NCBI GenBank assembly: GCA_903852325.1
Contig: CAINQO010000035.1
Span: 34,117 to 98,116 of the forward strand
From: Candidatus Omnitrophota bacterium
GTDB lineage: Bacteria; Omnitrophota; Gorgyraeia; Gygaellales; Profunditerraquicolaceae
Direction: 5' to 3'
Length of the DNA: 64,000 bases
Shown: piece after piece, positions 14,598 to 54,489 of the stretch
How the letters are laid out: each line of letters begins with the position of its first letter
How positions within the stretch are numbered: position 1 is the first letter of the stretch
The notes under the pieces: generated by a model
Told to the model about the DNA's origin: nothing
The model's input: the letters and a program-made list of their open reading frames with translations, nothing else
Databases searched by the model: none
Translations under genes and position numbers: made by a program

Positions 14598-14628
14598 AAG
14601 GAAGGGCGGATTGAATCCCGCCCTTCCT
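14598..14628 (+). promoter_or_regulatory. Perfect 11-bp hairpin AAGGAAGGGCGG-ATTGAAT-CCGCCCTTCCT (SD-mimic/anti-SD), a short-loop variant of the repeated leader element
   Basis: Lies 6 nt after the lpxL-fusion stop and 32 nt before the ATG at 14661, whose own SD is AAGGAAGGGTTGGG. The motif AAGGAAGGGCGG(G)AT(T)GAA recurs at 53550. Confidence 0.5.
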
Positions 14629-14660
14629 CAGCGATTTAAGTTAGCAAAGGAAGGGTTGGG

Positions 14661-16754
14661 ATGAAGATTTTACAAATTTTGCCGGAACTTAATGTCGGAG
14701 GGGTAGAGACCGGGACGGTGGACCTTTCCCGTCATCTGGTGCGCCTGGGGCATAAATCGGTGGTGGTTTCCGCCGGCGGAGCGCTGGTCAAAGAACTGGA
14801 GGAGGCGGGGGCTAAACACTATCAACTGCCGGTAAATAAAAAATCCATCATCTCCATGATCAAGCTGGTTCCGGAGTTAGCCGAAATTATCAAACGGGAA
14901 GGGATCGAGATCGTACATGCCCGCTCAAGGGCGCCGGCCTGGATCGCTTATTTTGCCTGCCGAAGGACCCAGGCGGTATTCGTTACCACTTGCCACGGTT
15001 ATTACCAGAAACATCTTTTTAGCGCGGTAATGGGCTGGGGCAAAAAAGTGATCGTTTTAAGCAACGTGATCGCCCGGCACATGATCGAGGATTTTGCCGT
15101 TCCCCATGAGCGGATCAAGCTGGTGCCGCGCAGCGTGGATCTGGAGAAATTTAAATACCGGGACCCTAAAAACAAAAGGAAAGAAGATTTTAATGTCGGT
15201 ATCATCGGCCGGATCACCCCGCTAAAAGGGCATTTGCATTTTATCAAAGCCATGGCACGCATTTCCCGCTCCGTCCCGCGCCTGAAGATCTGGATCGTCG
15301 GCGATGCTCCGGCTTCCAAGGAAGCTTATAAAGAAGAACTGCAAATTTTAGTGCGCCGCCTGGGTTTATGGCATTGCACGGAATTTCTGGGCACGCAGCG
15401 GGATATTCCGGGAATATTGGAGAACCTGGATCTGGTGGTTTTAGCCACGACTACTCAGGAGGCCTTCGGCAGGGTGGTTGTAGAGGCGCAGGCCTGCGGG
15501 GTACCGGTGGTGGCGACCAGGGTCGGAGGGGTGATCGATATTATCGAGGACGGCAAGAACGGGCTCCTGGTCCCTCCGGCGGATTCCAAAAGCATGTCGG
15601 AGGCGGTGATGCGTATTTTTAAGGACGCGGAATTCGCCCGCATCCTGGCGGAAAATGCCTACGCTAAGGTCAAAGAAAAATATAATGTGGAATTGATGGT
15701 CAAAAATACTTTAGAGGTTTACCGGGAGGCGCTGAATAATTTTAAGATCCTGGTGATCAAGCTCAGTTCTTTAGGGGACGTGATCCTTTCTACGGCGGCC
15801 TTAAGGGCGATCCGGGAAAAATTTCCCCAAAGTAAATACAAGATAAGTTTTCTGGTCGGGGAAGAATCCAAGGACCTGCTTTTGCGCTGCCCGTATATCG
15901 ACGAACTTCTGGTTTGCGACTTAAAAAATAAGGACCGCGGCCCCTTCGGTTTGCTGAGGATGGGTCAGCTTTTACGGAAGAAAAATTTCGACTCGGTGAT
16001 CGATCTGCAAAATAGCCGTTCCAGCCACCTGCTGGCTTATCTGAGCGGTTGCGTCCACCGCTACGGATATGACAATAAAAAGTTTTCCTTTTTGCTCAAC
16101 TACCGGATCCAGGATCAAAAAACCCCGCTGGACCCGGTAACCCACCAGTTCAGGATCCTTAAGCTGCTGGGGATCGACCTGTTGAATAATGCCCTTGAGC
16201 TTTGGCCTTCCGCGGAAGACCGGGAGAAGGTGGAGGAACTTTTTAATTCCCAATGGTTGAGCCAGGTGCAGAAAGTGGTGGGGATCAATATCAGCGCTTC
16301 CTCCAGATGGGAGACAAAACTCTGGCCGCTGGAATACGTGATCACCCTGTGTGAAGAACTGGAAGCCAGGGATATCCGGGTGGTCATTACCGGTAAGCAA
16401 GAGGATCAGCCGCGCGCCAACATGCTCGTCGATTCGCTTAAGAACACCAAGGTGATCAATGCCTGCGGCAAGACCAATATCAACGAATTGGCGGTGTTGA
16501 TCAAAAAATGCAATGTGTTCATCTCCGCCGATTCTTCTCCTTTGCATATCGCTTCCGCGGTGGGCACTCCTTTTGTCGCTTTGTTCGGCCCGACGGATCC
16601 TTTGCGGCACCTTCCCCCCGGGGCTAATTACGCGGTGATCGATAAGAAATTGAATTGCAGCCCTTGTTATAAAAATAGATGCCGCAGTAAGCGCTGCATG
16701 ATCGAGATCGATCCGGCGCAGGTTTTTGAAGCGGTAATGAAGTTATTGAAATAA
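14661..16754 (+). CDS. Bifunctional LPS-core glycosyltransferase: GT4 (RfaG-like) N-domain fused to GT9 (heptosyltransferase-like) C-domain
   Basis: N-terminal half has the GT4 E-x7-E motif region EAFGRVVVEAQACGVPVVATRVGGVIDIIEDGKNGLLVPP. C-terminal half has the GT9 pattern ILVIKLSSLGDVILSTAALRAIREKFP...ISADSSPLHIASAVGTPFVALFGPTDP. 697 aa. Confidence 0.8.
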   Translation: MKILQILPELNVGGVETGTVDLSRHLVRLGHKSVVVSAGGALVKELEEAGAKHYQLPVNKKSIISMIKLVPELAEIIKREGIEIVHARSRAPAWIAYFACRRTQAVFVTTCHGYYQKHLFSAVMGWGKKVIVLSNVIARHMIEDFAVPHERIKLVPRSVDLEKFKYRDPKNKRKEDFNVGIIGRITPLKGHLHFIKAMARISRSVPRLKIWIVGDAPASKEAYKEELQILVRRLGLWHCTEFLGTQRDIPGILENLDLVVLATTTQEAFGRVVVEAQACGVPVVATRVGGVIDIIEDGKNGLLVPPADSKSMSEAVMRIFKDAEFARILAENAYAKVKEKYNVELMVKNTLEVYREALNNFKILVIKLSSLGDVILSTAALRAIREKFPQSKYKISFLVGEESKDLLLRCPYIDELLVCDLKNKDRGPFGLLRMGQLLRKKNFDSVIDLQNSRSSHLLAYLSGCVHRYGYDNKKFSFLLNYRIQDQKTPLDPVTHQFRILKLLGIDLLNNALELWPSAEDREKVEELFNSQWLSQVQKVVGINISASSRWETKLWPLEYVITLCEELEARDIRVVITGKQEDQPRANMLVDSLKNTKVINACGKTNINELAVLIKKCNVFISADSSPLHIASAVGTPFVALFGPTDPLRHLPPGANYAVIDKKLNCSPCYKNRCRSKRCMIEIDPAQVFEAVMKLLK

Positions 16755-16819
16755 GCAATATACCTGGCGCTTAGTGGTATTGCGCCAGTACGCGCCACGT
16801 GGCGCGAGGGGCGGGATGA

Positions 16820-16894
16820 CCCCGCACCATCTTCTAATTCACGCTTTAAGTCCTAAGGTTTAATAACAATTAACTATAAGGATGGTGCGGGGTG
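16820..16894 (+). promoter_or_regulatory. Leader element copy A (anti-SD arm CCCCGCACCATCTTCT paired with SD/start arm AAGGATGGTGCGGGGTG) upstream of the GT4 gene
   Basis: The 5' arm at 16820..16835 is complementary to 16878..16894, which holds the RBS and the GTG start at 16892. An AT insertion is matched in both arms. The CGCGCCACGTGGCGCG palindrome lies upstream. Confidence 0.6.
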
Positions 16895-21127: not shown

Positions 21128-21250
21128 GTTGAGGAGTGGGGATTGGGTCGAGTAGTGGGATAGGTAGTGCGGGTGAGTTGTGGGGTAGACCAACTACTAA
21201 TCCACACAACCTAACGCACTACTTTACCTAACCCACACTACTCACCCTAT
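21128..21250. repeat. G-rich/C-rich imperfect long palindrome (GTAGTGGG / CCCACTAC / ACTACTAAT words); related copy at 58419
   Basis: GGATTGGGTCGAGTAGTGGGATAGGTAGTGCGGGTGAGTTGTGGGGTAG is followed by the near-complementary CTAATCCACACAACCTAACGCACTACTTTACCTAACCCACACTACTCACCC. Immediately 3' of the GT9-GT9 gene. Confidence 0.5.
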
Positions 21251-21281
21251 GCTCGATTTTGGCTATCCAGTAATGCTTGAT

Positions 21282-21315: not shown

Positions 21316-22245
21316 ATGATCAACTTAAAGAAGGTTAAAAGATATTCGCTTAAAGCCCGTTTAAGCAAGGTAAATAAGGGGGATTTTGCCCTTAAACCGG
21401 CTAAAGGCAGGAGTTTTTCCGTTTTTTTTGACTCCTTACCTAATATTTTAAAAGCCAAAGATTTACGCTCGGTTTCTGCCGATATTATCGCGGCGCGCCG
21501 GAAAAATAAAGGGGTGATTTTAATGGCCGGGGCCCACGTGATCAAGTGCGGGCTTAATCCGGTTTTGATCGAGTTGTTGGAAAAAAAAGTGATTACCTGT
21601 ATCTGCCTTAACGGGGCCGGATTGATCCACGATTTTGAGATCGCCTACCAGGGGAAGACTTCGGAAGATGTGGCCGCCAACCTCAAAGACGGGAAATTCG
21701 GGATGGGGATCGAGACCGCGGATTTTATCAACGCCGCGGTCAAAGAAGGGACTGAGGCGGGCTTTGGATTAGGTTATGCCTTAGCCAATAAAATGGCCGG
21801 GGCAGCTTTACCCAATAAAGATCTAAGCCTGATTTATAATGCCTATAAGCGTAAAATCCCGGTTTGTGTTTTTGCGGCGATCGGTACGGATATAATCCAT
21901 CAGCACCCTTCTTTCGACGCTGCGGCAACCGCCGTGGGCTCATTGCGGGATTTCCATATCCTGGTGGAGAGGATCCGCTCCTTGAATCAGGGGGGAGTGG
22001 TTTTAAATTTCGGCTCCGCGGTGCTTTTGCCTGAAGTATTTTTAAAGGCTTTGAACCTTGCCCGCAACCTGGGCAGCAAAGTGAAAGATTTTACTTCCGC
22101 TAATTTCGATATGATTTACCAGTACCGCGCGGCACAGAATGTAGTGAGCCGTCCCACCGCTTCCGGGGGTAAAGGCTATTATATTATCGGTCACCATGAG
22201 ATCATGCTGCCGCTTTTAGCCCAAAGTATATTGGAAAAAATCTGA
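21316..22245 (+). CDS. Deoxyhypusine synthase (DHS)-like NAD-binding family protein, function unknown, embedded in the LPS/heptose locus
   Basis: Three blocks follow the DHS pattern. AGAHVIKCGLNPVLIELLEKKVITCICLNGAGLIHDFE matches SN.ISSG.RE.I..L.....VDV.VTTAGGVEED. IPVCVFAAIGTDIIHQH matches IPVF.PA.TDGS.GD. LNQGGVVLNFGS matches GGGVVKHH. Start moved from the track's 21277 to the internal ATG at 21316 because 21277 overlaps the putative -35 box. Confidence 0.5.
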   Translation: MINLKKVKRYSLKARLSKVNKGDFALKPAKGRSFSVFFDSLPNILKAKDLRSVSADIIAARRKNKGVILMAGAHVIKCGLNPVLIELLEKKVITCICLNGAGLIHDFEIAYQGKTSEDVAANLKDGKFGMGIETADFINAAVKEGTEAGFGLGYALANKMAGAALPNKDLSLIYNAYKRKIPVCVFAAIGTDIIHQHPSFDAAATAVGSLRDFHILVERIRSLNQGGVVLNFGSAVLLPEVFLKALNLARNLGSKVKDFTSANFDMIYQYRAAQNVVSRPTASGGKGYYIIGHHEIMLPLLAQSILEKI

Positions 22246-22246
22246 C

Positions 22247-22317
22247 CCCGCACCTTCTTCGTATTCGATCTGAAGGTCAGGGGTAAAAAATAGTTAATAA
22301 TAGGAAGGTGCGGGGTG
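22247..22317 (+). promoter_or_regulatory. Leader element copy B (CCCCGCACCTTCTTC ... AGGAAGGTGCGGGGTG) upstream of hldE
   Basis: The 5' arm starts 2 nt after the upstream stop. An internal GAAGGTCAGGGG can alternatively pair with the anti-SD. The 3' arm supplies the SD and GTG start (22315). Confidence 0.6.
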
Positions 22318-23328
22318 AAGAACCTAAAAGAGATTGTCCGCAAATTCAAGCGGGCTAATATTTTGGTCGTCGGAGACCTGATCCTGGATGAATACATCTG
22401 GGGCGCGGTGGAGAGGATCTCTCCGGAGGCTCCCGTGCCGGTGCTTTGGGCCAACAAACGTACTTTTGTTCCCGGGGGCACCGCTAACGTGGCCAATAAC
22501 ATCGGCTCCTTCGGGGCAAAAGTGACTCTTTTGGGGGTCACCGGTTCCGACGCGAACTCCAAGATTTTGCTGGGCGAATTAAAGAAGAGAAAGATCGATA
22601 CGCGGGGTATTTTTGTCGAAAAAAATCGGCACACTACGGTCAAGACGCGGATCCTGGCCGGGCATCAGCAGGTAGTCCGGGTGGATTGGGAACATACCCA
22701 TGATCTGTCTCAAGAGTTAAACGATAAGATTTTAAAATTCATCCAGAAGAATATCGATGATTTCGACGCGATCATTATCGAGGATTACGGCAAAGGGGTA
22801 ATCAATGTCCCGCTCTTGAAAACGCTGATCGCTTTGGCGAAAAACCATAAAAAAATCATTACCGTTGATCCGAAAGAGGAGAACTTTCAGTTTTATCGGT
22901 CGGTAGATTCGATCACTCCTAACCGCAAGGAGCTGGAAAACGCGATAAGGAATTTGAAGATCCAGGACACGACCAACGGTTTCAAGATCAATACGGATAA
23001 ACTCTTTACGGATAAGGATGTGGACCGGGCTGCCCGGGAGATCCTGGAATACCTGCGTCTTGATTCTATTCTGGTTACCCTGGGGGAGCACGGGATGAAA
23101 CTTTTGGAAAAGAACGGCCGCCTTACCCATATTCCCACGGTAGCCCAGGAAGTTTTCGATGTTTCCGGCGCGGGGGATACCGTAATCAGCACCTTTACCC
23201 TGGCTTTAAGCGTGGGCGCTTCCAAATTAGAGGCGGCGCACATCGCCAATTTTGCCGCAGGGATAGTGGTAGGTAAATTGGGCACGGCAGTGACCAACAC
23301 TAAAGAACTATTAGAAAGGATTAAATAA
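22315..23328 (+). CDS. hldE: D-glycero-beta-D-manno-heptose 7-phosphate kinase (HldE domain I / RfaE1, PfkB family); no fused adenylyltransferase domain
   Basis: ILVVGDLILDEYIWGAVERISPEAPVPVL and the C-terminal DVSGAGDTV ribokinase motif. 337 aa, GTG start. Confidence 0.85.
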   Translation: MKNLKEIVRKFKRANILVVGDLILDEYIWGAVERISPEAPVPVLWANKRTFVPGGTANVANNIGSFGAKVTLLGVTGSDANSKILLGELKKRKIDTRGIFVEKNRHTTVKTRILAGHQQVVRVDWEHTHDLSQELNDKILKFIQKNIDDFDAIIIEDYGKGVINVPLLKTLIALAKNHKKIITVDPKEENFQFYRSVDSITPNRKELENAIRNLKIQDTTNGFKINTDKLFTDKDVDRAAREILEYLRLDSILVTLGEHGMKLLEKNGRLTHIPTVAQEVFDVSGAGDTVISTFTLALSVGASKLEAAHIANFAAGIVVGKLGTAVTNTKELLERIK

Positions 23329-24881: not shown

Positions 24882-24899
24882 ACTTTAATAAGGTGCGGG

Positions 24900-25868
24900 A
24901 TGAGTATTGATTTGATCAAACGGGCAAAAGAAGTTTTGGAAATCGAAGCGCAGGCAGTGCGCCGGTTAAAGGGGTGCCTGGATAAAGGTTTTATTAAAGC
25001 GGTTGAGCTGATCCTGAAGAGCAAGGGCAGGGTAGTGGTTAGCGGAATGGGCAAGACCGGAATTATCGCCCAAAAATTTTCCGCGACTCTTGCTTCGACC
25101 GGGACCCCCAGTTTATTCCTGCATACCGCCGAAGCTATTCACGGGGATTTAGGCAAGGTTACCGCGGATGATGTGGTGATCATCCTTTCTAACAGCGGTT
25201 CGACCGAGGAGATGAAACAGCTTTTGCCGATCCTCAAAAAGATCGGCGCTCCGATCATTTCTTTGACCGGCAACACCAAATCCATTCTGGCCAAATACAG
25301 CGATGTGGTCCTGGATGTCTCCGTGAAAAAAGAGGCCTGTCCGTTAGGTTTGGCCCCCACGGCTTCCACTACCGCGGCTTTGGCGATGGCCGATGCCCTG
25401 GCGGTCTGCCTGCTGGAACGTAAGGGGTTTAAAGAAAAGGATTTTGCATTTTTCCATCCTGGGGGCACTTTAGGCAAGCGCCTGCTTTTGAGCGTCGCGG
25501 ATATCATGCGCCAGGGGCAGTCTAATGCCATTGTCCGCGAGGATAAATTGGTGGCGGAAGTTTTGTTGGCGATTACCCGGGCCCGGGCCGGCAGCGCTAT
25601 TGTGGTGGATAAGCAGGGAAAACTGAAGGGGATATTCACCGACGGAGACCTGCGCCGGCATTTAGCCACCGACAAGTATTTACCGCAGCGGCCGATCAAA
25701 GAAGTAATGACCAAAAACCCCACGGTAGTGAGCAAAGATATGCTGGCGGCAGAGGCGATGCGGATATTACAGGCCAGGAAGATCGATGAAGTCCCGGTGG
25801 TGGATAAATTCAGGCGCCCGGTGGGCTTATTGGATGTCCAGGACCTGCTTAAAGCCGGATTAATTTAA
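24900..25868 (+). CDS. kdsD: Arabinose-5-phosphate isomerase (SIS plus tandem CBS)
   Basis: SIS motif VVVSGMGKTGIIAQKFSATLASTGTPS plus C-terminal CBS pair. 322 aa. SD AAGGTGCGGG precedes the ATG. Confidence 0.9.
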   Translation: MSIDLIKRAKEVLEIEAQAVRRLKGCLDKGFIKAVELILKSKGRVVVSGMGKTGIIAQKFSATLASTGTPSLFLHTAEAIHGDLGKVTADDVVIILSNSGSTEEMKQLLPILKKIGAPIISLTGNTKSILAKYSDVVLDVSVKKEACPLGLAPTASTTAALAMADALAVCLLERKGFKEKDFAFFHPGGTLGKRLLLSVADIMRQGQSNAIVREDKLVAEVLLAITRARAGSAIVVDKQGKLKGIFTDGDLRRHLATDKYLPQRPIKEVMTKNPTVVSKDMLAAEAMRILQARKIDEVPVVDKFRRPVGLLDVQDLLKAGLI

Positions 25869-27403: not shown

Positions 27404-28106
27404 GGGCCTGGCTAAATCCTATGACGGTCGCTGGGTGGTTAAGGGCGTGGATATCACGGTCAAGCGCGGGGAGATCGTCGGGCTTTTAGGCCCCAACGGA
27501 GCCGGCAAGACTACTACTTTTTATATGATCGTCGGGATCGTCCCCCCCAACAAGGGCACGATCGTTTTTGATAACCATGAAATCACCCGGATGGCGATCC
27601 ACGAGCGGGCGCGTTTCGGGATCGGCTATCTTGCCCAGGAACCCTCGATATTCCGGAAACTGACCGTGGAAGAAAATATCAACGCGATCCTGGAGACTTT
27701 GCCTTTGAGCCGCGCGCAGAGAAAAAACCGGCTGGCGTTTTTGCTGGAGGAGTTGAATATCGCGCACCTGGCAAAGCATAAAGCCTACACTTTAAGCGGC
27801 GGAGAGAGAAGGCGCCTGGAGATCACCCGGGCGCTGGTGACCAATCCTTCTTTTATCCTGCTGGATGAACCTTTCAGCGGGATCGACCCGATCGTCGTCA
27901 ATGAAGCGCAGGAGATCATTAAGGAATTAAAGGCCAAAGGCCTGGGTATTCTTTTGACCGACCATAATGTGCGGGAGACCCTGGCGATCACCGACCGGGC
28001 GTATTTAATTTCCGAAGGGGCGATCCTTATTTCCGGATCCGCGGAGGAGCTGATTAATCACCCTCAGGCCCGCCAGGTTTATTTAGGTGAGAAGTTTAGG
28101 ATGTAA
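27384..28106 (+). CDS. lptB: LPS export ABC transporter ATP-binding protein
   Basis: Walker [12 protein letters not shown], signature [11 protein letters not shown], Walker B ILLDEP. 240 aa. Confidence 0.9.
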
Positions 28107-28248
28107 CCCCGCACCTTCTTCTGTATTCGGAAGAAAAACGGATTGATTAAAGGCGCGGGACAATAATAACCATGGTCATTTCTTTAAACATCAAGGTTCA
28201 AAGCTTAGATGCAGGGAATGATATAATTAAGAAAGAAGGTGCGGGGTG
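28107..28248 (+). promoter_or_regulatory. Leader element copy C (CCCCGCACCTTCTTC ... AAGAAGGTGCGGGGTG) upstream of tig, with a 25-codon uORF
   Basis: The 5' arm begins at the first nt after the lptB TAA. The uORF at 28173..28250 ends with TGA overlapping the tig GTG (GGTGA). Confidence 0.6.
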
Positions 28249-29133
28249 AAAACCGAAGTTAAGAAATTAGACGGAACTAAACGTGAAATTAATGTCGCCG
28301 TGACCGGCGACTTGGTCAAAAATAAATTTGAAGAAGTTTTCGCACAGGTCGCCAAAGAAGCCAAGGTCCCGGGTTTTCGCCCGGGAAAAGCGCCCCGGGA
28401 TCTTCTGGAAAAGCATTACGGTTCCAGCGTCCATGAGCAGGTGTTAAAGGAGCTGGTCCCGGATGTGTATAACCAGGCGGTCGCGGCGGAAAAACTCGAT
28501 GTCATTGAGCTGCCCCAGATCACCGATGTGCAGCTGGATCGGGCCAGCCTTTCTTTTAAAGCGGTCGTGGAGGTCAGCCCGGAAATTACGCTGAAGAATT
28601 ATAAAAACCAGGTAATTAATTATAAGCTGCCGGTTGTTTCCGCGGATGAAGTGAAACGCCAGATCGACTCGGTCAAGGAATCGCGTAAGGCCGAAAACCT
28701 GGATGATAAATTCGCCCGCTCCCTGGGTTATCCTGATTTAGGGGAATTGGAAAAAGCGGTGGAAAGACAGATCTTTCTTACCAAGGAGAATCAGGAACGC
28801 CAGCGGATTGAAAATGAATTAATCGAAAATATTACCAAAGGGGTGGAATTTAAGCTGCCGCAAGGATTGGTGGACCGGCAGGTTCAGGATATGCTGCGGC
28901 AGACCAAGATCGATTTGGCGATGAAAGGGCTGCCCCGGGAGAAGATCGACGCGCAGGATAAATTGCTTTTAGAGGGGATCGAACCGGAAGCAAAAAAGCA
29001 GGTCAAGATTTACCTGATCCTGGCGCAGATCGCGAAAAAAGAGAATATCGCCATCGACGACCATATGCCGCGCAAGGTGATGGAGTTTCTGCTGGGTGAA
29101 GCAGAGTGGAAGGCTGCACAAGAGAATAAATAG
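28246..29133 (+). CDS. tig: Trigger factor lacking the central FKBP/PPIase domain
   Basis: N-terminal ribosome-binding domain (MKTEVKKLDGTKREINVAV..., GFRPGKAP signature) joined directly to the C-terminal chaperone arm. 295 aa versus about 430 typical. GTG start. Confidence 0.8.
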   Translation: MKTEVKKLDGTKREINVAVTGDLVKNKFEEVFAQVAKEAKVPGFRPGKAPRDLLEKHYGSSVHEQVLKELVPDVYNQAVAAEKLDVIELPQITDVQLDRASLSFKAVVEVSPEITLKNYKNQVINYKLPVVSADEVKRQIDSVKESRKAENLDDKFARSLGYPDLGELEKAVERQIFLTKENQERQRIENELIENITKGVEFKLPQGLVDRQVQDMLRQTKIDLAMKGLPREKIDAQDKLLLEGIEPEAKKQVKIYLILAQIAKKENIAIDDHMPRKVMEFLLGEAEWKAAQENK

Positions 29134-31091: not shown

Positions 31092-31219
31092 AAATCCTAG
31101 GCACTAAATCCTAAACTCTAAACAAACTCAAAAAATTTAAACTCAAAACCCGAAACATGGGTTTGGAGTTTTGGATTTTGGATTTGTTTAGGATTTAGAG
31201 TTTAGTGTTTAGAGTTTAG
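31092..31219. repeat. Long imperfect hairpin built from inverted heptamer tandem repeats (CTAAAYN x3 ... NGTTTAG x4) between serC and serA
   Basis: The left arm CTAAATC CTAAACT CTAAACA AACTCAAAA...AAACCC and loop GAAACAT precede the right arm GGGTTTGGAGTTTTGGATTTTGGATTTGTTTAG GATTTAG AGTTTAG TGTTTAG AGTTTAG. The arms are A/C-rich versus G/T-rich. Confidence 0.5.
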
Positions 31220-31240
31220 AATAATAATGAGGGGTGAGAG

Positions 31241-32827
31241 ATGATCAAAGTTTTAGTCAGTGATGCGTTAAGCCAGGAAGGGCTCAAAATATTCAATGAT
31301 TGCAAAGAGCTTACCGTAGATGTCAAGACGGATTTAAAACCCGATGCGCTCAAAGAAATCATCAAGGATTATGACGCTTTGGTGGTCCGCAGTGCGACCA
31401 AGGTGACCAAGGAAATAATCCAGGCCGCCGAAAAACTAAAAGTGATCGGCCGGGCCGGAGTAGGTTTGGATAATGTGGATCTGGAAGCGGCGACCGCCAA
31501 AGGGATCATCGTTATGAACACCCCGGCGGGAAACACGATCTCTACCGCCGAACATACCTTCAGCATGATCCTGACCTTATCCCGGAATATCGCCCAGGCA
31601 AACGCCTCGATGAAGAAGGGGGAATGGAAACGTTCCAAATTCATGGGGGTGGAATTATACAATAAGGTTTTGGGGATCGTTGGGTTCGGCCGGATCGGTT
31701 CGGAGGTGGCTAAGCGCGCGCTTTCATTCGGAATGAAGGTGTTGGCGTATGACCCGTTTTTATCTGCCCAGGTTGCCGAGAGCATCGGGGTGGAGATTGC
31801 CGAATTGAAGAAGGTACTGCAGGAATCCGACTATATTACCGTGCACACTCCTTTAACCGAAGAAACCAGGCACATGATTTCGGATAAAGAATTCGCTTTA
31901 ATGAAAAAGAATGTGCGCATCGTCAATTGCGCCCGCGGCGGGATCATCGACGAACTGGCTTTAGTCAAAGCGGTTAAAGAAGGTAAGGTTTCCGGAGCGG
32001 CGATGGATGTTTTTGAAAATGAACCGCTGGCCGCCGACAGTGAACTTTTGAAGCTGGATAACGTGATTACTACTCCGCATCTAGGGGCTTCTACCGAAGA
32101 GGCGCAGATCAATGTCGCCATCGAAGTGGCGGAGATCGTGCGCGACGCGCTCCTGGGCCGGGGGATCCGTAACGCCGCCAATTATCCCTGCTTAGAAGCG
32201 GAGGTGTGCAAGATCCTTAATCCCTACATTAACCTGGCGGAAAAACTGGGGATGTTCAGCGCCCAGCTGGTTGAGGGCCGGTTCCAGGAATTAGTGATCA
32301 ACTATAGCGGACAGATCACTAAGTATGATTTAAGTTCGGTAACCATGGCCCTGGCCAAAGGACTGCTTACCCCGATATTAAAAGAGACGGTTAATTTCGT
32401 TAACGGCATCTCTTTGCTCAAAGAAAGAGGGATAAAGCTGCGCGAATCGAAATCCGCGGAAGAAGGAGAGTTCGTTAATCTTATTCAGTTGGAAATTAAG
32501 ACCGACAAAGAAAGCAAATCGGTTTGCGGGACCCTTTCCAGCAATAAGCAGCCCCGTATCGTAAAAATCGACGATTATTACCTGGAATTATACCCGATCG
32601 GAGAAATGGTGTTTATCCGGAATTGGGATAAGCCGGGACTGATCGGAAGCCTGGGGACATTCATGGGTAAGAACGGGATCAATATCGCCGCAATGACCTT
32701 CGGCCGGGATAAACCGGGCGGAAAGGCGATCAGCGTGTTGAACGTGGATAGCCTGGTCAGCCAGGAGATCCTGGACAAGATCAGGGAATTGGAAAATATC
32801 CTCACTGCTAAAATAATCCGGACGTGA
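31241..32827 (+). CDS. serA: D-3-phosphoglycerate dehydrogenase (long form with ASB and ACT domains)
   Basis: NAD-binding GIVGFGRIGSEVAKRA, catalytic ...CARGGIIDE...HLGASTEEAQ, C-terminal ACT domain. 528 aa. Confidence 0.9.
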   Translation: MIKVLVSDALSQEGLKIFNDCKELTVDVKTDLKPDALKEIIKDYDALVVRSATKVTKEIIQAAEKLKVIGRAGVGLDNVDLEAATAKGIIVMNTPAGNTISTAEHTFSMILTLSRNIAQANASMKKGEWKRSKFMGVELYNKVLGIVGFGRIGSEVAKRALSFGMKVLAYDPFLSAQVAESIGVEIAELKKVLQESDYITVHTPLTEETRHMISDKEFALMKKNVRIVNCARGGIIDELALVKAVKEGKVSGAAMDVFENEPLAADSELLKLDNVITTPHLGASTEEAQINVAIEVAEIVRDALLGRGIRNAANYPCLEAEVCKILNPYINLAEKLGMFSAQLVEGRFQELVINYSGQITKYDLSSVTMALAKGLLTPILKETVNFVNGISLLKERGIKLRESKSAEEGEFVNLIQLEIKTDKESKSVCGTLSSNKQPRIVKIDDYYLELYPIGEMVFIRNWDKPGLIGSLGTFMGKNGINIAAMTFGRDKPGGKAISVLNVDSLVSQEILDKIRELENILTAKIIRT

Positions 32828-35804: not shown

Positions 35805-35852
35805 ATATCGAACGAGAGAGTAGTTAGCAGGCTGAATGCGGGTTAGTTAACA

Positions 35853-37198
<1,346 letters not shown>

Positions 37199-50239: not shown

Positions 50240-52546
50240 ATGCCCAAAACAAAAAAAGAAAAACCCCCGGTAGAAAAAACAGCTAAACCTAAAAAAACCG
50301 CGGCCAAGGAAGCAGCTAAGCCTAAGGCGGTCAAAGCGGCCAAGCCTAAACCTTCCGCAGTAAGGGCGGTCAAGGAAAGTAAGCCAAGCCCGAAGCCGGT
50401 ATTTAAATCCATGCTTAAACCGGGGCCAAAGCCTGATTTTAGGCCCCTGGTTAAAACTCAGATTAAGCCGGTGGTAAAACCTGAAATCAAGCCGGAAATA
50501 AAGCACGAGGTTAAGCCGGCAATAAAACCCGAACTCAAACCCGAGCATAAGCCTGAAGTTAAGCATGAAATTAAGCATGAGGTAAAGCACGAAGCAAAGC
50601 ACGAAGCAAAGCACGAGGTGAAGCCTGAAATTAAACATGAGGTAAAACCGGAAACGAAATCTGATATAAAACCTGAGGTTAAAGTTGCGCATAAGCCGGA
50701 AGTTAAGGCTGAGCATAAGCCGGAAGTTAAGGTTAAAGTTTCGGCCCCGGTTCCGGTTGTTCCTGTCGAAGTTAAGGCTCCGGCGGCCCCAGAAAAAGAG
50801 ATTGAGCTGGAATTGCCGATTACCGTTAAAGATTTGGCCGTAAAATTGCAGGAAAAATCTTCAATCCTCATCAAGCACCTTATGGGGATGGGGATAATGG
50901 TGGGGATCAATCAGCCCCTGGACGAAGTTTCTTTAAATAAATTATGTTTAAAATATAATTTCAAAGTAAAAAAAGCGCTTAATGCCGAAGAGATAGTTTT
51001 GCAGGCGCACAGTAAAATAGACAAACCCCAGGATAAAAAGACCCGCGCTCCGATCGTCACCTTTATGGGGCATGTTGATCACGGTAAAACTTCTCTTTTG
51101 GATGCGATCCGTAATACTAAAGTAGCGGATAAAGAGCACGGAGGGATCACCCAGCATATCGGCGCCTACCGGGTGCAACTTCCCCAGGGGGAGATCACTT
51201 TCCTGGATACGCCGGGCCATGAAGCGTTTACCGCGATGCGCGCCCGCGGCGCCAGGATCACCGATATCGTGGTTTTAGTCGTCGCTGCGGATGACGGGAT
51301 TATGCCCCAGACGCAGGAAGCGATCGATCATGCCAAAGCCGCGCAGGTCGCGATCATTGTGGCGGTCAATAAAATCGATAAGGCGCAGGCAAATTTGGAT
51401 ATGGTCAAAAAACAGCTGGCCGCGGCCGGTTTAACTCCCGAGGATTGGGGAGGTAAAACCATTACCGTGCCGGTTTCGGCAAAGACCGGAGCGGGGATCG
51501 ATACCCTGCTGGAAATGATCCTGCTGCAGGCGGAAATGATGGAATTAAAGGCCAATCCTGACCGGTTGGCCAACGGAGTGGTAGTGGAAGCCAGGATGGC
51601 CAAAGGCCGGGGCCCGGTCGCCACCCTGCTTATCCAGAACGGAACTTTGCATCTTAATCAAAATATAATCGTCGGCAATCTTTACGGAAAGATCCGGGCG
51701 ATGCTTAATGACCGGGGGCAGGGAGTGACCGCGGTAGGGCCGGGAACTCCGGTAGAAATTTTAGGCATCAGCGGGATTCCTCAGGTAGGGGAGCAATTTT
51801 TCGCGATCGAAGATGAAAAGCAGGCCAAAGAATTGATCCAGGCGCGCCAGGAAAAAGAAAGGATCGCCCAGGTCAAGGAAGTAAAAAGGGTTAATCTGGA
51901 AGAGCTGCATGCCCAGATTGCCGCCGGTGAGATCAAGGAATTAAATTTGATTATCAAGGCCGATGTTCAGGGATCCCTGGAGGCGATTAAAGATACCCTG
52001 GAGAAATTGAATGTCTCTGAGATAAAGATCAATATCCTCCACATGGCTGCCGGCAACATCAATGCCTCCGACGTGATTTTAGCGGTAGCTTCCGATGCCC
52101 TGCTGGTGGGGTTCAACGTTTTATCCGATGAGCCGGCCAAGGAGCTGATCGCCAAAGAAAAGATCGAGGTAAAGATATACAACATTATTTATGAGCTGGC
52201 CAACGATATAAAAGCGGCGGTGGAAGGAATGCTTGACCCGAGGTTAAAGAAAATATTTTTGGGCCGGGCGGAAGTCAGGAAAATGTTCAAGCTTTCCCAT
52301 TCCGGAATTATCGCCGGCTGCATGATTACCAAGGGCAAGATCAACCGCCACTGCCAGGTTACCGTAATGCGTAACGGGGATGCGATTTTTGAAGGCAAAA
52401 TTTCCAGCCTCAAACGGTTTAAGGATGATGTCCGCGAGGTAGGGGAGGGTTTTGAATGCGGTATCGCCATCGGCGGTTTCGACCAATTAGCCGAAGGGGA
52501 TATCATTGAAGCCTACGATATCGAGAAAATAGCCAGGAAGCTGTAA
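50240..52546 (+). CDS. infB: Translation initiation factor IF-2 with a repetitive (KPEV/KHEV)n N-terminal region
   Basis: G-domain [25 protein letters not shown]. 768 aa. Residues about 75-165 are tetrapeptide repeats. Confidence 0.95.
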
Positions 52547-52566: not shown

Positions 52567-53550
52567 ATGAATAAGAAGCGGATATTAAGCGGAATGCGTC
52601 CGACGGGCAAGCTGCACCTTGGGCACCTGGTGGGGGCGCTTTCCAACTGGATCAAGCTGCAGGATGAATACGACTGTTTTTTTATGGTGGCGGATTGGCA
52701 CGCGCTGATGTCGGAGTACGAAAATCCGGCTGAGCTTAAGGCGAACATGCTGGATAATGTGCTGGATTGGCTGGCCTGCGGGATTGACCCGGGAAAATCG
52801 GTGATTTTTATCCAGTCGCAGATCCCGGAGCATCTTGAGCTATATTTTATCCTTTCCCTGATCACCCCCCTGGGGCTGCTTGAGCGCTGCCCTACTTATA
52901 AGGAACAACTGCGCCAGGTAACCAACCGGGATTTAAGCACCTACGCTTTTTTAGGTTATCCGGTATTGCAGGCCGCCGACATCCTGCTTTATAAAGCCGA
53001 TAGCGTACCGGTTGGAGAGGATCAATTGCCGCATTTAGAGCTGACCCGCCAGATCGCGCGTAAGTTCAACCATATTTATAAAACAGATTGTTTTTCCGAT
53101 CCCAAGGCCTTGCTTACCCAGACTACCCGGCTTTTGGGTTTAGACGGCCGCAAGATGAGCAAGAGTTATAATAATTACATCGCTATTTCCGAGGCGCCGG
53201 AAGTGATCCGTAAAAAAGTGCAGGGGATGTTTACCGACCCGGCGCGCATCCGGGTCACCGACCGGGGGCATCCGGAAAAATGTAATGTTTATTATTATTA
53301 TGAAGCTTTTTTCCCCGAGATAAAAGACAAGGTCCATGACCGTTGTGTTAATGCCCAGATCGGCTGCACGGAATGCAAAAAAGAACTGGCGGACCGGTTG
53401 ATCGGATTATTGGCGCCTATTCAGGAAAAAAGGAAGGCTTTGGAAAAAGATAAAAAGTATATTCAAGAAATTTTATCCGTTGGACGGGAAAAGGCCGACC
53501 TTTCAGCCAAAAAAACCATCGCCCAGGTCAAAGGGCTTTTAAAGATATAA
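52567..53550 (+). CDS. trpS: Tryptophanyl-tRNA synthetase
   Basis: HIGH-type motif (GKLHLGHLVG) and KMSKS. 327 aa. Confidence 0.95.
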   Translation: MNKKRILSGMRPTGKLHLGHLVGALSNWIKLQDEYDCFFMVADWHALMSEYENPAELKANMLDNVLDWLACGIDPGKSVIFIQSQIPEHLELYFILSLITPLGLLERCPTYKEQLRQVTNRDLSTYAFLGYPVLQAADILLYKADSVPVGEDQLPHLELTRQIARKFNHIYKTDCFSDPKALLTQTTRLLGLDGRKMSKSYNNYIAISEAPEVIRKKVQGMFTDPARIRVTDRGHPEKCNVYYYYEAFFPEIKDKVHDRCVNAQIGCTECKKELADRLIGLLAPIQEKRKALEKDKKYIQEILSVGREKADLSAKKTIAQVKGLLKI

Positions 53551-53719
53551 AGGAAGGGCGGGATGAACCCTGCATTTTCTTGTTATTCAATATTAAAGTC
53601 TTAGGAATTTGATGATTAAACAGAAGGAAGGTGCGGGGGTGAATCCCGCTCCTTCTAATTGTTCAATGCTAAAACCCATACGTTTTAAAGAATTCAATAA
53701 GAAAGAAGGAGCGGGATGA
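53550..53719 (+). promoter_or_regulatory. Tandem (degenerate plus intact) leader element copies E1/E2 upstream of scpA, each with a uORF
   Basis: Pseudo-start AAGGAAGGGCGGGATGAA (53550..53567), then uORF1 MNPAFSCYSILKS (53563..53604). Second pseudo-start AGAAGGAAGGTGCGGGGGTGAA, anti-SD TCCCGCTCCTTCT (53644..53656) and uORF2 MNPAPSNCSMLKPIRFKEFNKKEGAG (53639..53719). Real SD AGAAGGAGCGGGA (53704..53716), exactly complementary to the anti-SD with two compensatory changes relative to the consensus. Confidence 0.6.
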
Positions 53720-54489
53720 ATTATAAAATCCGCTTAGAGATGTTTGAGGGGCCCTTAGACCTGCTGCTTTACCTGGTCAAGAAAGACCACCTGAATATCT
53801 ACGATATCCCCATCGCCAAGGTCACCCAGCAATACCTGGAATATATCAACCTGATGCAGCTTTTGGATTTGAATGTGGTCGGGGAGTTTTTGGTGATGGC
53901 GGCGACCCTGATGCAGATAAAATCCAAGATGCTTCTTCCGGCGGAGGAGTTGGCCGCGCAGGAGGAGGAAGAGGATCCGCGCGCTGAGCTGGTCAAGCGG
54001 CTTTTGGAATATGAAAAATTCAAACAGATCGCCGAAAATTTAAAACAGCGGGAAGCCAGCCAGCAGGAAGTTTTTAAACGCCCCAAGACCGAGACCCCGC
54101 AGGAGCTGCAGGTGCAGGATAAGGAAGAGGAAAAGTATTTTGAAGCCAGCATTTTTGACCTGATCGATGCCTTTTCCCGGGCGATCAAAGACATCCCCCG
54201 GGAAGTTTTTTACGAAGTGATTAAGGATCAGTTTACGGTCGAGCAGAAGGTGCATGATATTCTGCATTTATTGCTGGTAGAAACAAAAATCAAGCTTTCG
54301 GATCTTTTCTCCAAGAGCAAGGGCAAGCTAGAGATCATCGCCATATTTTTGGCGATCCTTGAGCTGGCGAAAATGAAGGAGATCCTTGCCCGCCAGGACG
54401 CCGATTTTGCCGACATTATCATTATCCGCAACAAGGAAAACATAATCCCTTATGAACGAAGAGACCAGACACCCGCTGCTGAAGGCTAA
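53716..54489 (+). CDS. scpA: Segregation and condensation protein A
   Basis: FEGPLDLLLYLVKKDHLNIYDIPIAKVTQQYLEYI. 257 aa. Confidence 0.85.
   Translation: MNYKIRLEMFEGPLDLLLYLVKKDHLNIYDIPIAKVTQQYLEYINLMQLLDLNVVGEFLVMAATLMQIKSKMLLPAEELAAQEEEEDPRAELVKRLLEYEKFKQIAENLKQREASQQEVFKRPKTETPQELQVQDKEEEKYFEASIFDLIDAFSRAIKDIPREVFYEVIKDQFTVEQKVHDILHLLLVETKIKLSDLFSKSKGKLEIIAIFLAILELAKMKEILARQDADFADIIIIRNKENIIPYERRDQTPAAEG

Follow-up and report, generated by a model that had tools for sequence, protein, structure and literature searches.

Between trpS and scpA of a Candidatus Omnitrophota bacterium, a spacer holds tandem copies of a short sequence element, and the question raised by this locus is whether the element is a regulatory leader belonging to scpA or a sequence that arrived there from elsewhere. 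The stretch of DNA analyzed, referred to as the window, comprises 64,000 nucleotides (GenBank assembly GCA_903852325.1, contig CAINQO010000035.1, positions 34,117 to 98,116 of the forward strand), and the trpS-scpA spacer occupies its positions 53551-53715. A first-pass annotation had proposed that a conserved 26-codon open reading frame (ORF) within the element acts as a leader peptide by translational coupling or attenuation. The explanation favored here, with a probability of about 0.7, is that of a miniature mobile element which inserts at start codons and carries a small ORF coupled to the gene that it precedes.

The trpS-scpA Spacer

Members of the element family share a common anatomy, TGAA / YCCCGCACCTTCT - AT-rich spacer - AAGAAAG AGAAGGTGCGGGR / TGAA, in which the 13-bp terminal inverted repeats (TIRs) YCCCGCACCTTCT and AGAAGGTGCGGGR are reverse complements of each other and nearly invariant among copies. 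The right arm includes a Shine-Dalgarno (SD) sequence (GAAGGTG), and its final base is the first base of the start codon. Lengths of the copies in the window and in metagenome-assembled genomes (MAGs) range from 57 to 142 nt and are typically about 75-85 nt. The trpS-scpA spacer reads, in order, TAA of trpS, AGGAAGGGCGGG, ATGAA+CCCTGCATTTTCT...GGAAGGTGCGGGG, GTGAA+TCCCGCTCCTTCT...AGAAGGAGCGGG, and ATGAA(TTAT) of scpA; it thus comprises an intact copy of about 80 nt, a decayed copy, and a vestigial third right arm. The features of this region, all on the plus strand, are as follows.

53548..53550, plus strand: stop codon TAA of trpS; in relatives this place is taken by a TGA that forms part of an ATGA overlap with scpA
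53551..53562, plus strand: vestigial right arm (AGGAAGGGCGGG), probably of an older, mostly deleted copy ('copy 0'), as comparison with empty sites suggests
53563..53638, plus strand: copy 1, degenerate, recognized by its sequence and by nhmmer (E=4e-7 over the same interval), with the hairpin fold retained
53563, plus strand: ATG of copy 1, followed by its TGAA flank (53564-53567) and decayed left arm CCCTGCATTTTCT (53568-53580)
53602-53604, plus strand: TAG that ends the 13-codon ORF of copy 1; its right arm GGAAGGTGCGGGG lies at 53626-53638
53639..53719, plus strand: copy 2, intact by its sequence (nhmmer match 53639-53721, E=1.8e-13), with a 26-codon ORF from GTG 53639 to TGA 53717-53719
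53640..53643, plus strand: left TGAA flank of copy 2, the target-site duplication according to flank covariation and the comparison of filled and empty sites
53644..53656, plus strand: left TIR of copy 2, the anti-SD arm TCCCGCTCCTTCT, from sequence and helix
53704..53716, plus strand: right TIR of copy 2, AGAAGGAGCGGGA, source of the SD and of the A that begins the scpA start codon, as reflected in Y:R covariation
53716..54489, plus strand: scpA (PF02616), its ATG rebuilt from the last repeat base plus TG
53717-53720, plus strand: right TGAA flank of copy 2, within the scpA start, from the comparison of filled and empty sites

The intact and the degenerate copy had both been recognized in the first-pass annotation, and sequence and profile searches agree on their presence; the vestigial right arm had been overlooked. 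The ORF of copy 2 opens at GTG 53639-53641, translates as (M/V)NPAPSNCSMLKPIRFKEFNKKEGAG, and stops at a TGA that overlaps the scpA ATG (53716-53718) in an ATGA, as previously described. Its start does not lie inside the anti-SD arm, where it had been placed, since the GTG is situated directly 5' of that arm. The degenerate copy begins alike, as had also been noted, its ORF translating as MNPAFSCYSILKS from the ATG at 53563. In the arms of copy 2, an A:T change relative to the family consensus is compensatory.

In the window, the stop of trpS is part of ATATAA, followed by the lone right arm. This arrangement would correspond to a mutated TGAA and the remnant of an older copy, so that the array in front of scpA would consist of a vestige, a decayed copy, and an intact copy, left in tandem by successive insertions or duplications. 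The vestigial arm probably serves as SD for the ORF of copy 1. In a public 612-kb contig (ERZ1426847), a gene for 35 amino acids (aa) has been called on the small ORF in front of scpA, with a 4-nt overlap with scpA.

Filled and Empty Sites

Orthologous trpS-scpA junctions were retrieved from 80 loci with ScpA identities of 70-88%. The empty junction ATATGAATTAT, i.e., ...ATA TGA ATT AT with overlapping stop and start codons (gap of -4), is found in 36 of the 80 and a 1-nt gap in 19, and besides the window only four junctions (L126, L128, L136, and L151) are filled. L151 reads ..ATA TGAA, then C CCCGCACCTTCT..GAAGGTGCGGG G, then TGAA TTATAAAATC, where empty sites read ..ATA TGAA TTATAAAATC, and therefore equals an empty site plus an exact insertion and a duplication of TGAA. 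A neighbor-joining (NJ) tree of ScpA places filled loci within groups of empty ones at no fewer than two or three positions. L126 and L136 have a decayed left arm, and the ORF of L126 is still fully open. In more distant relatives (L185/L186 and L190), trpS-scpA junctions contain unrelated insertions of 86-92 nt, one of them with CATTGCGAGGAGCGAAGCGACGAAG, and several small elements seem to use this stop/start junction as a hotspot.

A search pattern requiring only two arms and RTGA was run over species-representative genomes and yielded at least 112 sites, almost all in MAGs of Candidatus Omnitrophota and distributed over at least 37 assemblies among the first 80 loci; including the window, 126 distinct copies were compiled. 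An NTG in the context RTGA follows directly in 134 of 140 arm pairs. The flanks covary in the manner of direct repeats, a left ATGAG being accompanied by a right RTGAG (TGAG/TGAG) in 7 of 10 cases vs. 2 of 116 otherwise (p=5e-8), and the rare copies situated off start codons are flanked by GTCAA/GTCAA or TTAA/TTAA. The genes downstream of the copies fall into 77 unrelated clusters, and the spacer sequence is nonetheless common to copies in front of different genes; some genes, for example radA, hldE, and kpsF, bear the element in several species. These comparisons show, at the level of sequence, an insertion into the TGAA of an ATGAA start context, very often the ATGA overlap of two genes of an operon. 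Short, present in many copies, devoid of an intact transposase gene, bounded by TIRs, and found at filled and empty sites that differ by a target-site duplication, the element is by these features a family of non-autonomous miniature inverted-repeat transposable elements (MITEs) that pervades Candidatus Omnitrophota. Neither the short nor a full-length form was encountered in viral contigs.

A GIY-YIG Nuclease Cassette as Parent

In one locus (L095, 6425-6727), the same ends lie 296 nt apart around an ORF for a GIY-YIG nuclease, and this is the only distant-arm pair in 1.1 Mb of retrieved loci. The L095 cassette has a 1-nt frameshift in an A-rich run after about codon 20, which could indicate a pseudogene, an assembly error, or programmed frameshifting. 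The frameshift-corrected protein of 100 aa has 124 homologs, mostly from Omnitrophota, many of which are exactly 100 aa long and extend from MNPAPS to KEGAG. Among 120 nuclease sequences, the N-terminal motif is located at residue 1 in 47, the GAG end is present in 58, and 35 have both. The full cassette comprises 303 nt (ATGAAC+CCCGCACCTTCT ... AAGAAAGAAGGTGCGGG+GTGAA) and is a single ORF from the left to the right repeat. It is found between gcvPA and gcvPB and between the genes for dCMP deaminase (cdd) and nrdR, with 4-nt overlaps on both sides; in L017, nrdR directly follows the deaminase gene with a 1-nt gap and an ATGCGT start, which is the only, and approximate, empty site for the cassette. 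The Pfam domain GIY-YIG (PF01541) covers residues 11-76 of the full-length relatives (E=1e-16). The protein consists of the catalytic domain only, as no separate DNA-binding domain was found in its 100 aa and the residues beyond 11-76 are encoded by the repeats. Ratios of non-synonymous to synonymous substitutions (dN/dS) of 0.12-0.19 in the nuclease frame vs. 0.74-1.5 off frame indicate strong purifying selection on the nuclease ORF.

When a profile of the full cassette is aligned with the copies in the window, only its positions 1-32 and about 242-303 match, and therefore the 80-nt copies correspond to the 5'-terminal 30 nt or so of the cassette joined to roughly its last 55 nt. This alignment identifies the short elements as in-frame internal-deletion derivatives of the 303-nt cassette, and retention of the cassette ends explains both ends of the supposedly conserved peptide, MNPAPSxYS... 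as well as its C-terminus. That the element is a relic of mobile DNA derived from the GIY-YIG cassette can be considered very probable.

The Small ORF

The first-pass annotation had regarded the small ORF as conserved and had reported that the peptides of the copies in front of purA and scpA are identical in 17 of 26 positions. This identity is confirmed, as are the extent of the purA copy (35853..35933) and the overlap of its TGA with the GTG. Across the family, frame and length, neither of them part of the search pattern, are preserved far above chance. A start codon is situated exactly 6 nt before CCCGC in 103 of the 126 copies (ATG in 92, GTG in 10, and TTG in 1; any other offset has 0-8 copies), and the length of the element is a multiple of three in 83 of 126 (66% vs. 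an expected 33%; p=9e-14). The small ORF (MNPAPS...) is open to the TGA of RTGA in 52 of 103 copies, vs. 14.9 +/- 3.3 in dinucleotide-shuffled spacers, and 0 and 4 copies have the other two frames open over the whole spacer. In 44 copies a long upstream ORF has its TGA within the ATGA of the small ORF, and in eight more the upstream stop adjoins the left arm. Length variants of the 75-nt class differ by +/-3 nt in 30 copies, by +/-1 in 9, and by +/-2 in 18, and a 3-nt indel with the frame preserved distinguishes the orthologs L017 and L094. The N-terminal MNPAPS and the C-terminal KEGAG are nearly invariant, and in many copies the small ORF stops after 6-15 codons.

The peptide itself was assessed in the 75-nt subfamily, using 17 copies from various genomes and in front of various genes, those of purA and scpA among them. 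Column entropy is flat across the three codon positions (0.606, 0.611, and 0.663), without codon periodicity, and dN/dS according to Nei-Gojobori is 0.66 in the ORF frame vs. 0.72 and 0.67 off frame, which provides no evidence for selection on the peptide. Since dN/dS is the same in all frames, the 17/26 identity must be imposed by the nucleotide sequence, as the first-pass annotation had itself suspected, and the synonymous Ser and Arg differences to which it had pointed carry no weight. Copies interrupted by stop codons are nevertheless rare in the diverged 75-nt subfamily, 1 of 18 vs. 6.2 +/- 2.0 in simulations (P=0.005, about 8 substitutions per copy), a comparison that is approximate as the simulation assumes a star phylogeny. 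Judged from these patterns, selection is retaining the start codon, a length of 3n, and a stop-free frame, and the amino acid sequence is unselected.

The RNA Helix and a Possible Translational Relay

Covariation links the base preceding CCCGC to the initial base of the main start codon (C:G in 79 and T:A in 31 copies; Fisher 2e-15), and therefore the helix formed by the two arms includes the start codon. This helix is present in the minimum-free-energy structure of 123 of the 126 copies, with a mean of -32 kcal/mol. Copy 2 in front of scpA folds with -32.7 kcal/mol (z=-5.8), and the whole trpS-scpA spacer folds into two tandem hairpins (-62.9 kcal/mol, z=-5.35). Compensatory changes in the arms comprise T:A at scpA, CCATC/GATGG at 16820/16881 of the window, and CCCAGCCCCTCCT/AGGAGGGGCTGGG in L016. 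At about 650-810 of L016, in front of a purN-like gene, these perfectly complementary arms belong to a divergent subfamily with the SD AAGGAGG and the start ATGAAC. A structure-blind scan of the window for long-range helices of 12 bp found GC-rich helices in multiple registers at copies of the element only. With Rfam 15, no match was obtained at the gathering threshold for the whole window, and at E<=1 positions 53400-53850 gave chance-level matches only. When the leader is truncated, the anti-SD arm can pair with an internal pseudo-SD in 88 of 126 copies and so form an alternative hairpin.

Mini-hairpins that consist of the arms and a 4-nt loop also occur (L081:5881-6010, L109:6274-6380, and L039:2879-2905), for example ATGAAT CCCGCACCTT TAAT AAGGTGCGGG ATGAAT, some of them nested inside another copy with ATGAAT again on both flanks. 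Nested or tandem units are found in L081, L109, L002, and L077 as well. All copies have a conserved AAGAAAG in the 7 nt directly 5' of the right arm, outside the helix. Together, AAGAAAG+AAGGTG (AAGAAAGAAGGTG) are complementary to the canonical 3' tail of 16S rRNA at 11 of 12 positions; the fetched loci, in which a 16S 3' end was sought, contain no 16S gene. AAGAAAG could be a toehold from which the 30S subunit invades the helix.

From these features a mechanism can be proposed. Insertion would split ATGAA such that the ribosome-binding site (RBS) of the host gene and the original ATG stay on the left and now start the small ORF of the element (MNPAPS...KEGAG). With the right repeat, the gene would acquire a new SD (GAAGGTG), together with the base that opens the reconstituted start codon (R+TG), and the duplicated TGA would become the stop of the small ORF on the new start codon (RTGA, overlap of -4). 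In the mRNA, the repeats would pair over 13-16 bp (about -32 kcal/mol for the leader), burying the new SD and start codon and blocking independent initiation. Ribosomes coming from the old start codon, often by way of termination at the ATGA of the upstream cistron, would translate the small ORF and unzip the helix, and after termination on RTGA, re-initiation or the freed SD would let the host gene retain its original translational input. In the full-length form, the same ribosome traffic would express the nuclease. Some copies in which an upstream stop adjoins the left arm, such as those at hldE and tig in the window, would depend on that stop. We infer that such a translational relay is frequent and not universal; that the small ORF is translated and relays ribosomes seems probable, and helix formation and re-initiation in vivo may be presumed.

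Other Copies in the Window

The window contains six loci of the element, the family profile giving further matches at 16819-16894, 22245-22321, 28105-28252, and 35852-35937. All genes of the window are on the plus strand, and each copy terminates precisely on the start codon of a gene. The 16-mer SD/start motif occurs 8 times in the window vs. 0.2 times expected. The remaining copies are listed below.

35853..35933, plus strand: purA copy; ATG 35853, left arm CCCCGCGCCTTCT at 35858-35870, right arm at 35918-35930, 26-codon ORF ending on GTGA with GTG at 35930
28104..28249, plus strand: tig copy, 142 nt from the start of the arm to TGA; left arm at 28107-28119, right arm at 28234-28246
22243..22318, plus strand: copy at an hldE-like gene; upstream TGA at 22243-22245 adjoining the left arm at 22246-22258, right arm at 22303-22315, GTG at 22315
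16816..16894, plus strand: copy at a glycosyltransferase gene; compensatory arms CCCCGCACCATCT at 16820-16832 and GATGGTGCGGGG at 16881-16892, GTG at 16892
14600..14663, plus strand: copy of a variant subfamily; upstream arm GGAAGGGCGGA, TTG start, left arm TCCCGCCCTTCC at 14616-14627, right arm GAAGGGTTGGGA at 14650-14661
24889..24902, plus strand: solo right arm (TAAGGTGCGGG+ATG) at a kpsF-like gene, 18 nt past the upstream stop

In the tig copy, the TAA of the upstream gene adjoins the left arm, and the 3' 60 nt correspond to the 3' end of the nuclease cassette; the 25-codon ORF reported earlier is indeed present, translates as MVISLNIKVQSLDAGNDIIKKEGAG, and ends on GTGA 28246-28249. The small ORF of the glycosyltransferase copy closes early. 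For the variant-subfamily copy (14616-14661), the first-pass annotation has to be corrected, as an in-frame ORF of 17 codons leads from the TTG to ATGA 14661-14664. The complete element is present at the kpsF-like orthologs of L061, L088, and L109, and the solo arm in the window looks like the product of a partial deletion that retained the element-derived SD. Of eight long ORFs in the window that initiate with GTG, four are the element-bearing genes at 16892, 22315, 28246, and 35930, and in these the right repeat ends with the G of the start codon, which pairs with the C that precedes CCCGC. The element occupies 6 of roughly 18 intergenic spacers longer than 60 nt and accounts for 4 of the 8 GTG starts.

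Some further features of the window were recorded. An AT-rich intergenic region at 31105-31220, 5' of the gene at 31241, contains interlocking direct and inverted 12-mers (TAAATCCTAAAC / GTTTAGGATTTA, TTTAGAGTTTAG) unrelated to the element. At 21155-21250, in a 150-nt spacer before the ORF at 21277, two long-range inverted repeats adjoin each other (GTGGGATAGGTA/TACCTAACCCAC and GGGTGAGTTGTG/CACTACTCACCC); they may form a structured RNA, for which there is no Rfam match. The N-terminus of IF-2, encoded by infB (50240-50800), has a long run of KPE(I/V)K / HE(V/A)K repeats, a low-complexity segment that is probably ordinary for the lineage.

Alternative Explanations

The logic of classic coupling or attenuation invoked by the first-pass annotation survives in part: the ORF begins immediately before the arm that sequesters the SD and terminates on the main start codon, but a host leader peptide or attenuator is not what the comparisons indicate. 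If the element were a cis-regulatory leader evolved by the host for a regulon (an attenuator, RNA thermometer, or riboswitch-like device), its anti-SD arm would alternate between the pseudo-SD and the real SD. The strong helix that sequesters the SD, the alternative hairpin foldable in 88 of 126 truncated leaders, and the recurrence of the element at radA, hldE, and kpsF in several species are what one might expect from such a leader. It is very unlikely all the same, as more than 70 of the 80 orthologous scpA junctions lack the element, filled and empty sites have exact boundaries with TGAA duplicated, downstream genes are functionally unrelated, the spacer is hypervariable without a conserved ligand-binding core, Rfam gives no match, and the internal pseudo-SD is a residue of nuclease coding sequence. 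The riboswitch or regulon reading was dropped on account of the unrelated downstream genes and of the empty sites in most orthologs; secondary exaptation of the element may have occurred at some loci. A host leader that owes its function to a conserved peptide is contradicted, in addition, by the TIRs and target-site duplication, the origin by deletion from a GIY-YIG cassette, and the flat dN/dS. SecM, ErmCL, and TnaC are ribosome-stalling peptides, and an arrest peptide MNPAPS... that stalls the ribosome and holds the helix open on a signal would be in keeping with the near invariance of MNPAPS and KEGAG and with termination on the start codon. This possibility is extremely slight: both conserved ends are encoded by the inverted repeats and are also the termini of the 100-aa nuclease, the middle is without amino acid constraint (dN/dS of 0.66 vs. 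0.67-0.72, flat entropy), many copies end after 6-15 codons, and conservation at orthologous loci is lacking, most scpA junctions being without the element.

It appears unlikely as well that the element is an untranslated structural repeat, comparable to repetitive extragenic palindromic sequences and acting in RNA stability, RNA processing, or at the DNA level, whose ORF features were inherited from the nuclease and have not yet decayed. The copies do descend from an ORF, half of their ORFs are interrupted, and at some orthologous sites (the radA group) the arms are far better kept than the ORF start. However, lengths of 3n are found in 66% instead of 33%, in numerous length classes from 57 to 84 nt, variants that depart from the 75-nt class by +/-3 (30) exceed those by +/-1 (9) and +/-2 (18), stops are avoided despite about 8 substitutions per copy, the L017/L094 orthologs keep the frame, the ORF of L126 is open although its left arm has decayed, and 44 copies share an ATGA overlap with the upstream gene. 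In a further alternative, the GIY-YIG gene is an unrelated selfish passenger of a pre-existing hairpin repeat, and the repeats were moved by another enzyme or by recombination. A single full-length copy in 1.1 Mb of retrieved loci, the 46 of 120 homologs without both repeat-encoded termini, and the missing DNA-binding domain speak for a passenger, which nonetheless seems improbable, given that both repeat-encoded termini occur in frame in at least 35 distinct nucleases, that TGAA/RTGA junctions are identical at different host loci, and that cassette sequence other than the repeats survives in the short copies, about 30 nt from the 5' part and about 55 nt from the 3' part. A MITE that retains the end sequence of its autonomous parent is the usual relation.

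Several points weigh against the start-codon-inserting mobile element with a coupled ORF. In about half of the copies the ORF stops early within the element, 23 of 126 copies have no start codon, and radA orthologs keep the arms with a start that is ATG, ATT, or absent; a full relay is therefore not obligatory. The statistics on 3n length and open frames are not fully independent, as copies are kin by descent and partly inherit the parent ORF. The ScpA tree is a rough NJ tree, so that the number of independent insertions is uncertain, and the ORF is fully open in only 2 of the 5 filled scpA junctions. The full-length cassette is absent from the 64-kb window, and the nuclease holds the catalytic domain alone. 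GIY-YIG homing enzymes usually leave 2-nt overhangs and not a 4-bp duplication, and we know of no prokaryotic GIY-YIG transposase. The GIY-YIG nuclease may mobilize the short copies in trans, and that the nuclease itself is the mobility enzyme can be put forward tentatively, at slightly less than even odds.

Relation to Known Systems

Start codons also appear to be the insertion sites of mycobacterial interspersed repetitive units (MIRUs), in which an internal ORF is coupled to the gene with a -4 spacing (PMC12548453, summarising Supply et al. 1997); filled sites show tetranucleotide direct repeats, the TIRs are imperfect, and ORFs overlap adjacent genes (PMC3184786). The Omnitrophota element resembles them as an intercistronic repeat of 40-100 bp with start-codon insertion, a -4 coupled ORF, tetranucleotide repeats, and tandem arrays, and its insertion at start codons, RTGA at 134/140 arm pairs, and tandem units agree with this likeness. 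By analogy of described features, and not by sequence comparison to a MIRU consensus, it seems to work like a MIRU, and MIRUs are its closest analog. In contrast to MIRUs, it occurs in another phylum, its TIRs are perfect 13-mers, which also serve as SD and anti-SD and restore the start codon, and it has an identified protein-coding parent with the same ends, the GIY-YIG cassette. To our knowledge, no mobilizing enzyme has been described for MIRUs.

Phage T4 has free-standing GIY-YIG homing endonuclease genes (seg), which lie as promoter-less cassettes between conserved genes and in some cases have start/stop overlaps (PMC2988022). Like them, the Omnitrophota cassette is promoter-less and co-oriented between conserved genes, and overlaps suggest coupling; hairpins that sequester the RBS have been described for some of the phage genes. 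In contrast, Seg proteins have a DNA-binding domain of their own and home, through double-strand-break repair, to allelic sites, with neither TIRs nor a duplication, whereas the Omnitrophota cassette encodes a bare catalytic domain of 100 aa, is bounded by TIRs and TGAA, and is found in chromosomes at many non-allelic sites with MITE progeny. Stand-alone minimal GIY-YIG proteins of prokaryotes have been described as Slx1-like domains without auxiliary domains and without a mobile context (PMC1564403).

Correia elements of Neisseria are bacterial MITEs, and REP2 of Neisseria and IR of Borrelia are repeats that carry an RBS and ATG (PMC3184786). Similarly, the Omnitrophota element is short, multi-copy, bounded by TIRs, flanked by a target-site duplication, and co-transcribed, and REP2 and IR also supply RBS and ATG; REP2 differs in having no TIRs. 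The MITEs known to us derive from DDE or other insertion sequence transposases, do not target start codons, and carry no relay ORF. Coupling by RNA unfolding or re-initiation is known for rpmI-rplT of E. coli, coat-lysis of MS2, and VII-IX of f1 (PMC12548453). There, too, a downstream SD and start are buried by an upstream translated segment whose stop overlaps or adjoins the downstream start; these are single evolved loci, whereas the Omnitrophota device is a portable module copied to dozens of genes.

In the literature on the Omnitrophota motif and on start-codon GIY-YIG elements, no description of a TIR-bounded, start-codon-targeting GIY-YIG cassette or repeat was found. The most far-reaching interpretation, which we regard as a real possibility that falls somewhat short of an even chance, is that of a new class of prokaryotic transposable element. 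Its 303-bp cassette would contain as sole gene that of a 100-aa GIY-YIG nuclease (Slx1/YhbQ-type) whose termini are encoded by the element's own 13-bp repeats. The nuclease would catalyze insertion at the TGAA of start codons and be expressed via the host RBS, with ribosomes returned at RTGA, and the 80-nt copies at scpA and purA would be MITEs mobilized in trans.

Biological Significance

Annotation pipelines sometimes list the relic ORFs of the element as proteins, which explains some spurious small genes in public databases. As a module that unites anti-SD, relay ORF, SD, start base, and stop, the element is a portable coupling cassette of possible use in operon engineering. After MIRUs, it would be a second, independent, and much clearer case of mobile DNA that targets start codons and is kept harmless by translational coupling, and, unlike for MIRUs, a candidate mobility enzyme and sharply defined ends make its mechanism directly testable. 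If the interpretation is true, it would suggest a role for stand-alone bacterial GIY-YIG proteins, that of a selfish element for at least some of the minimal nucleases, and would offer a model for how MIRU-type repeats move.

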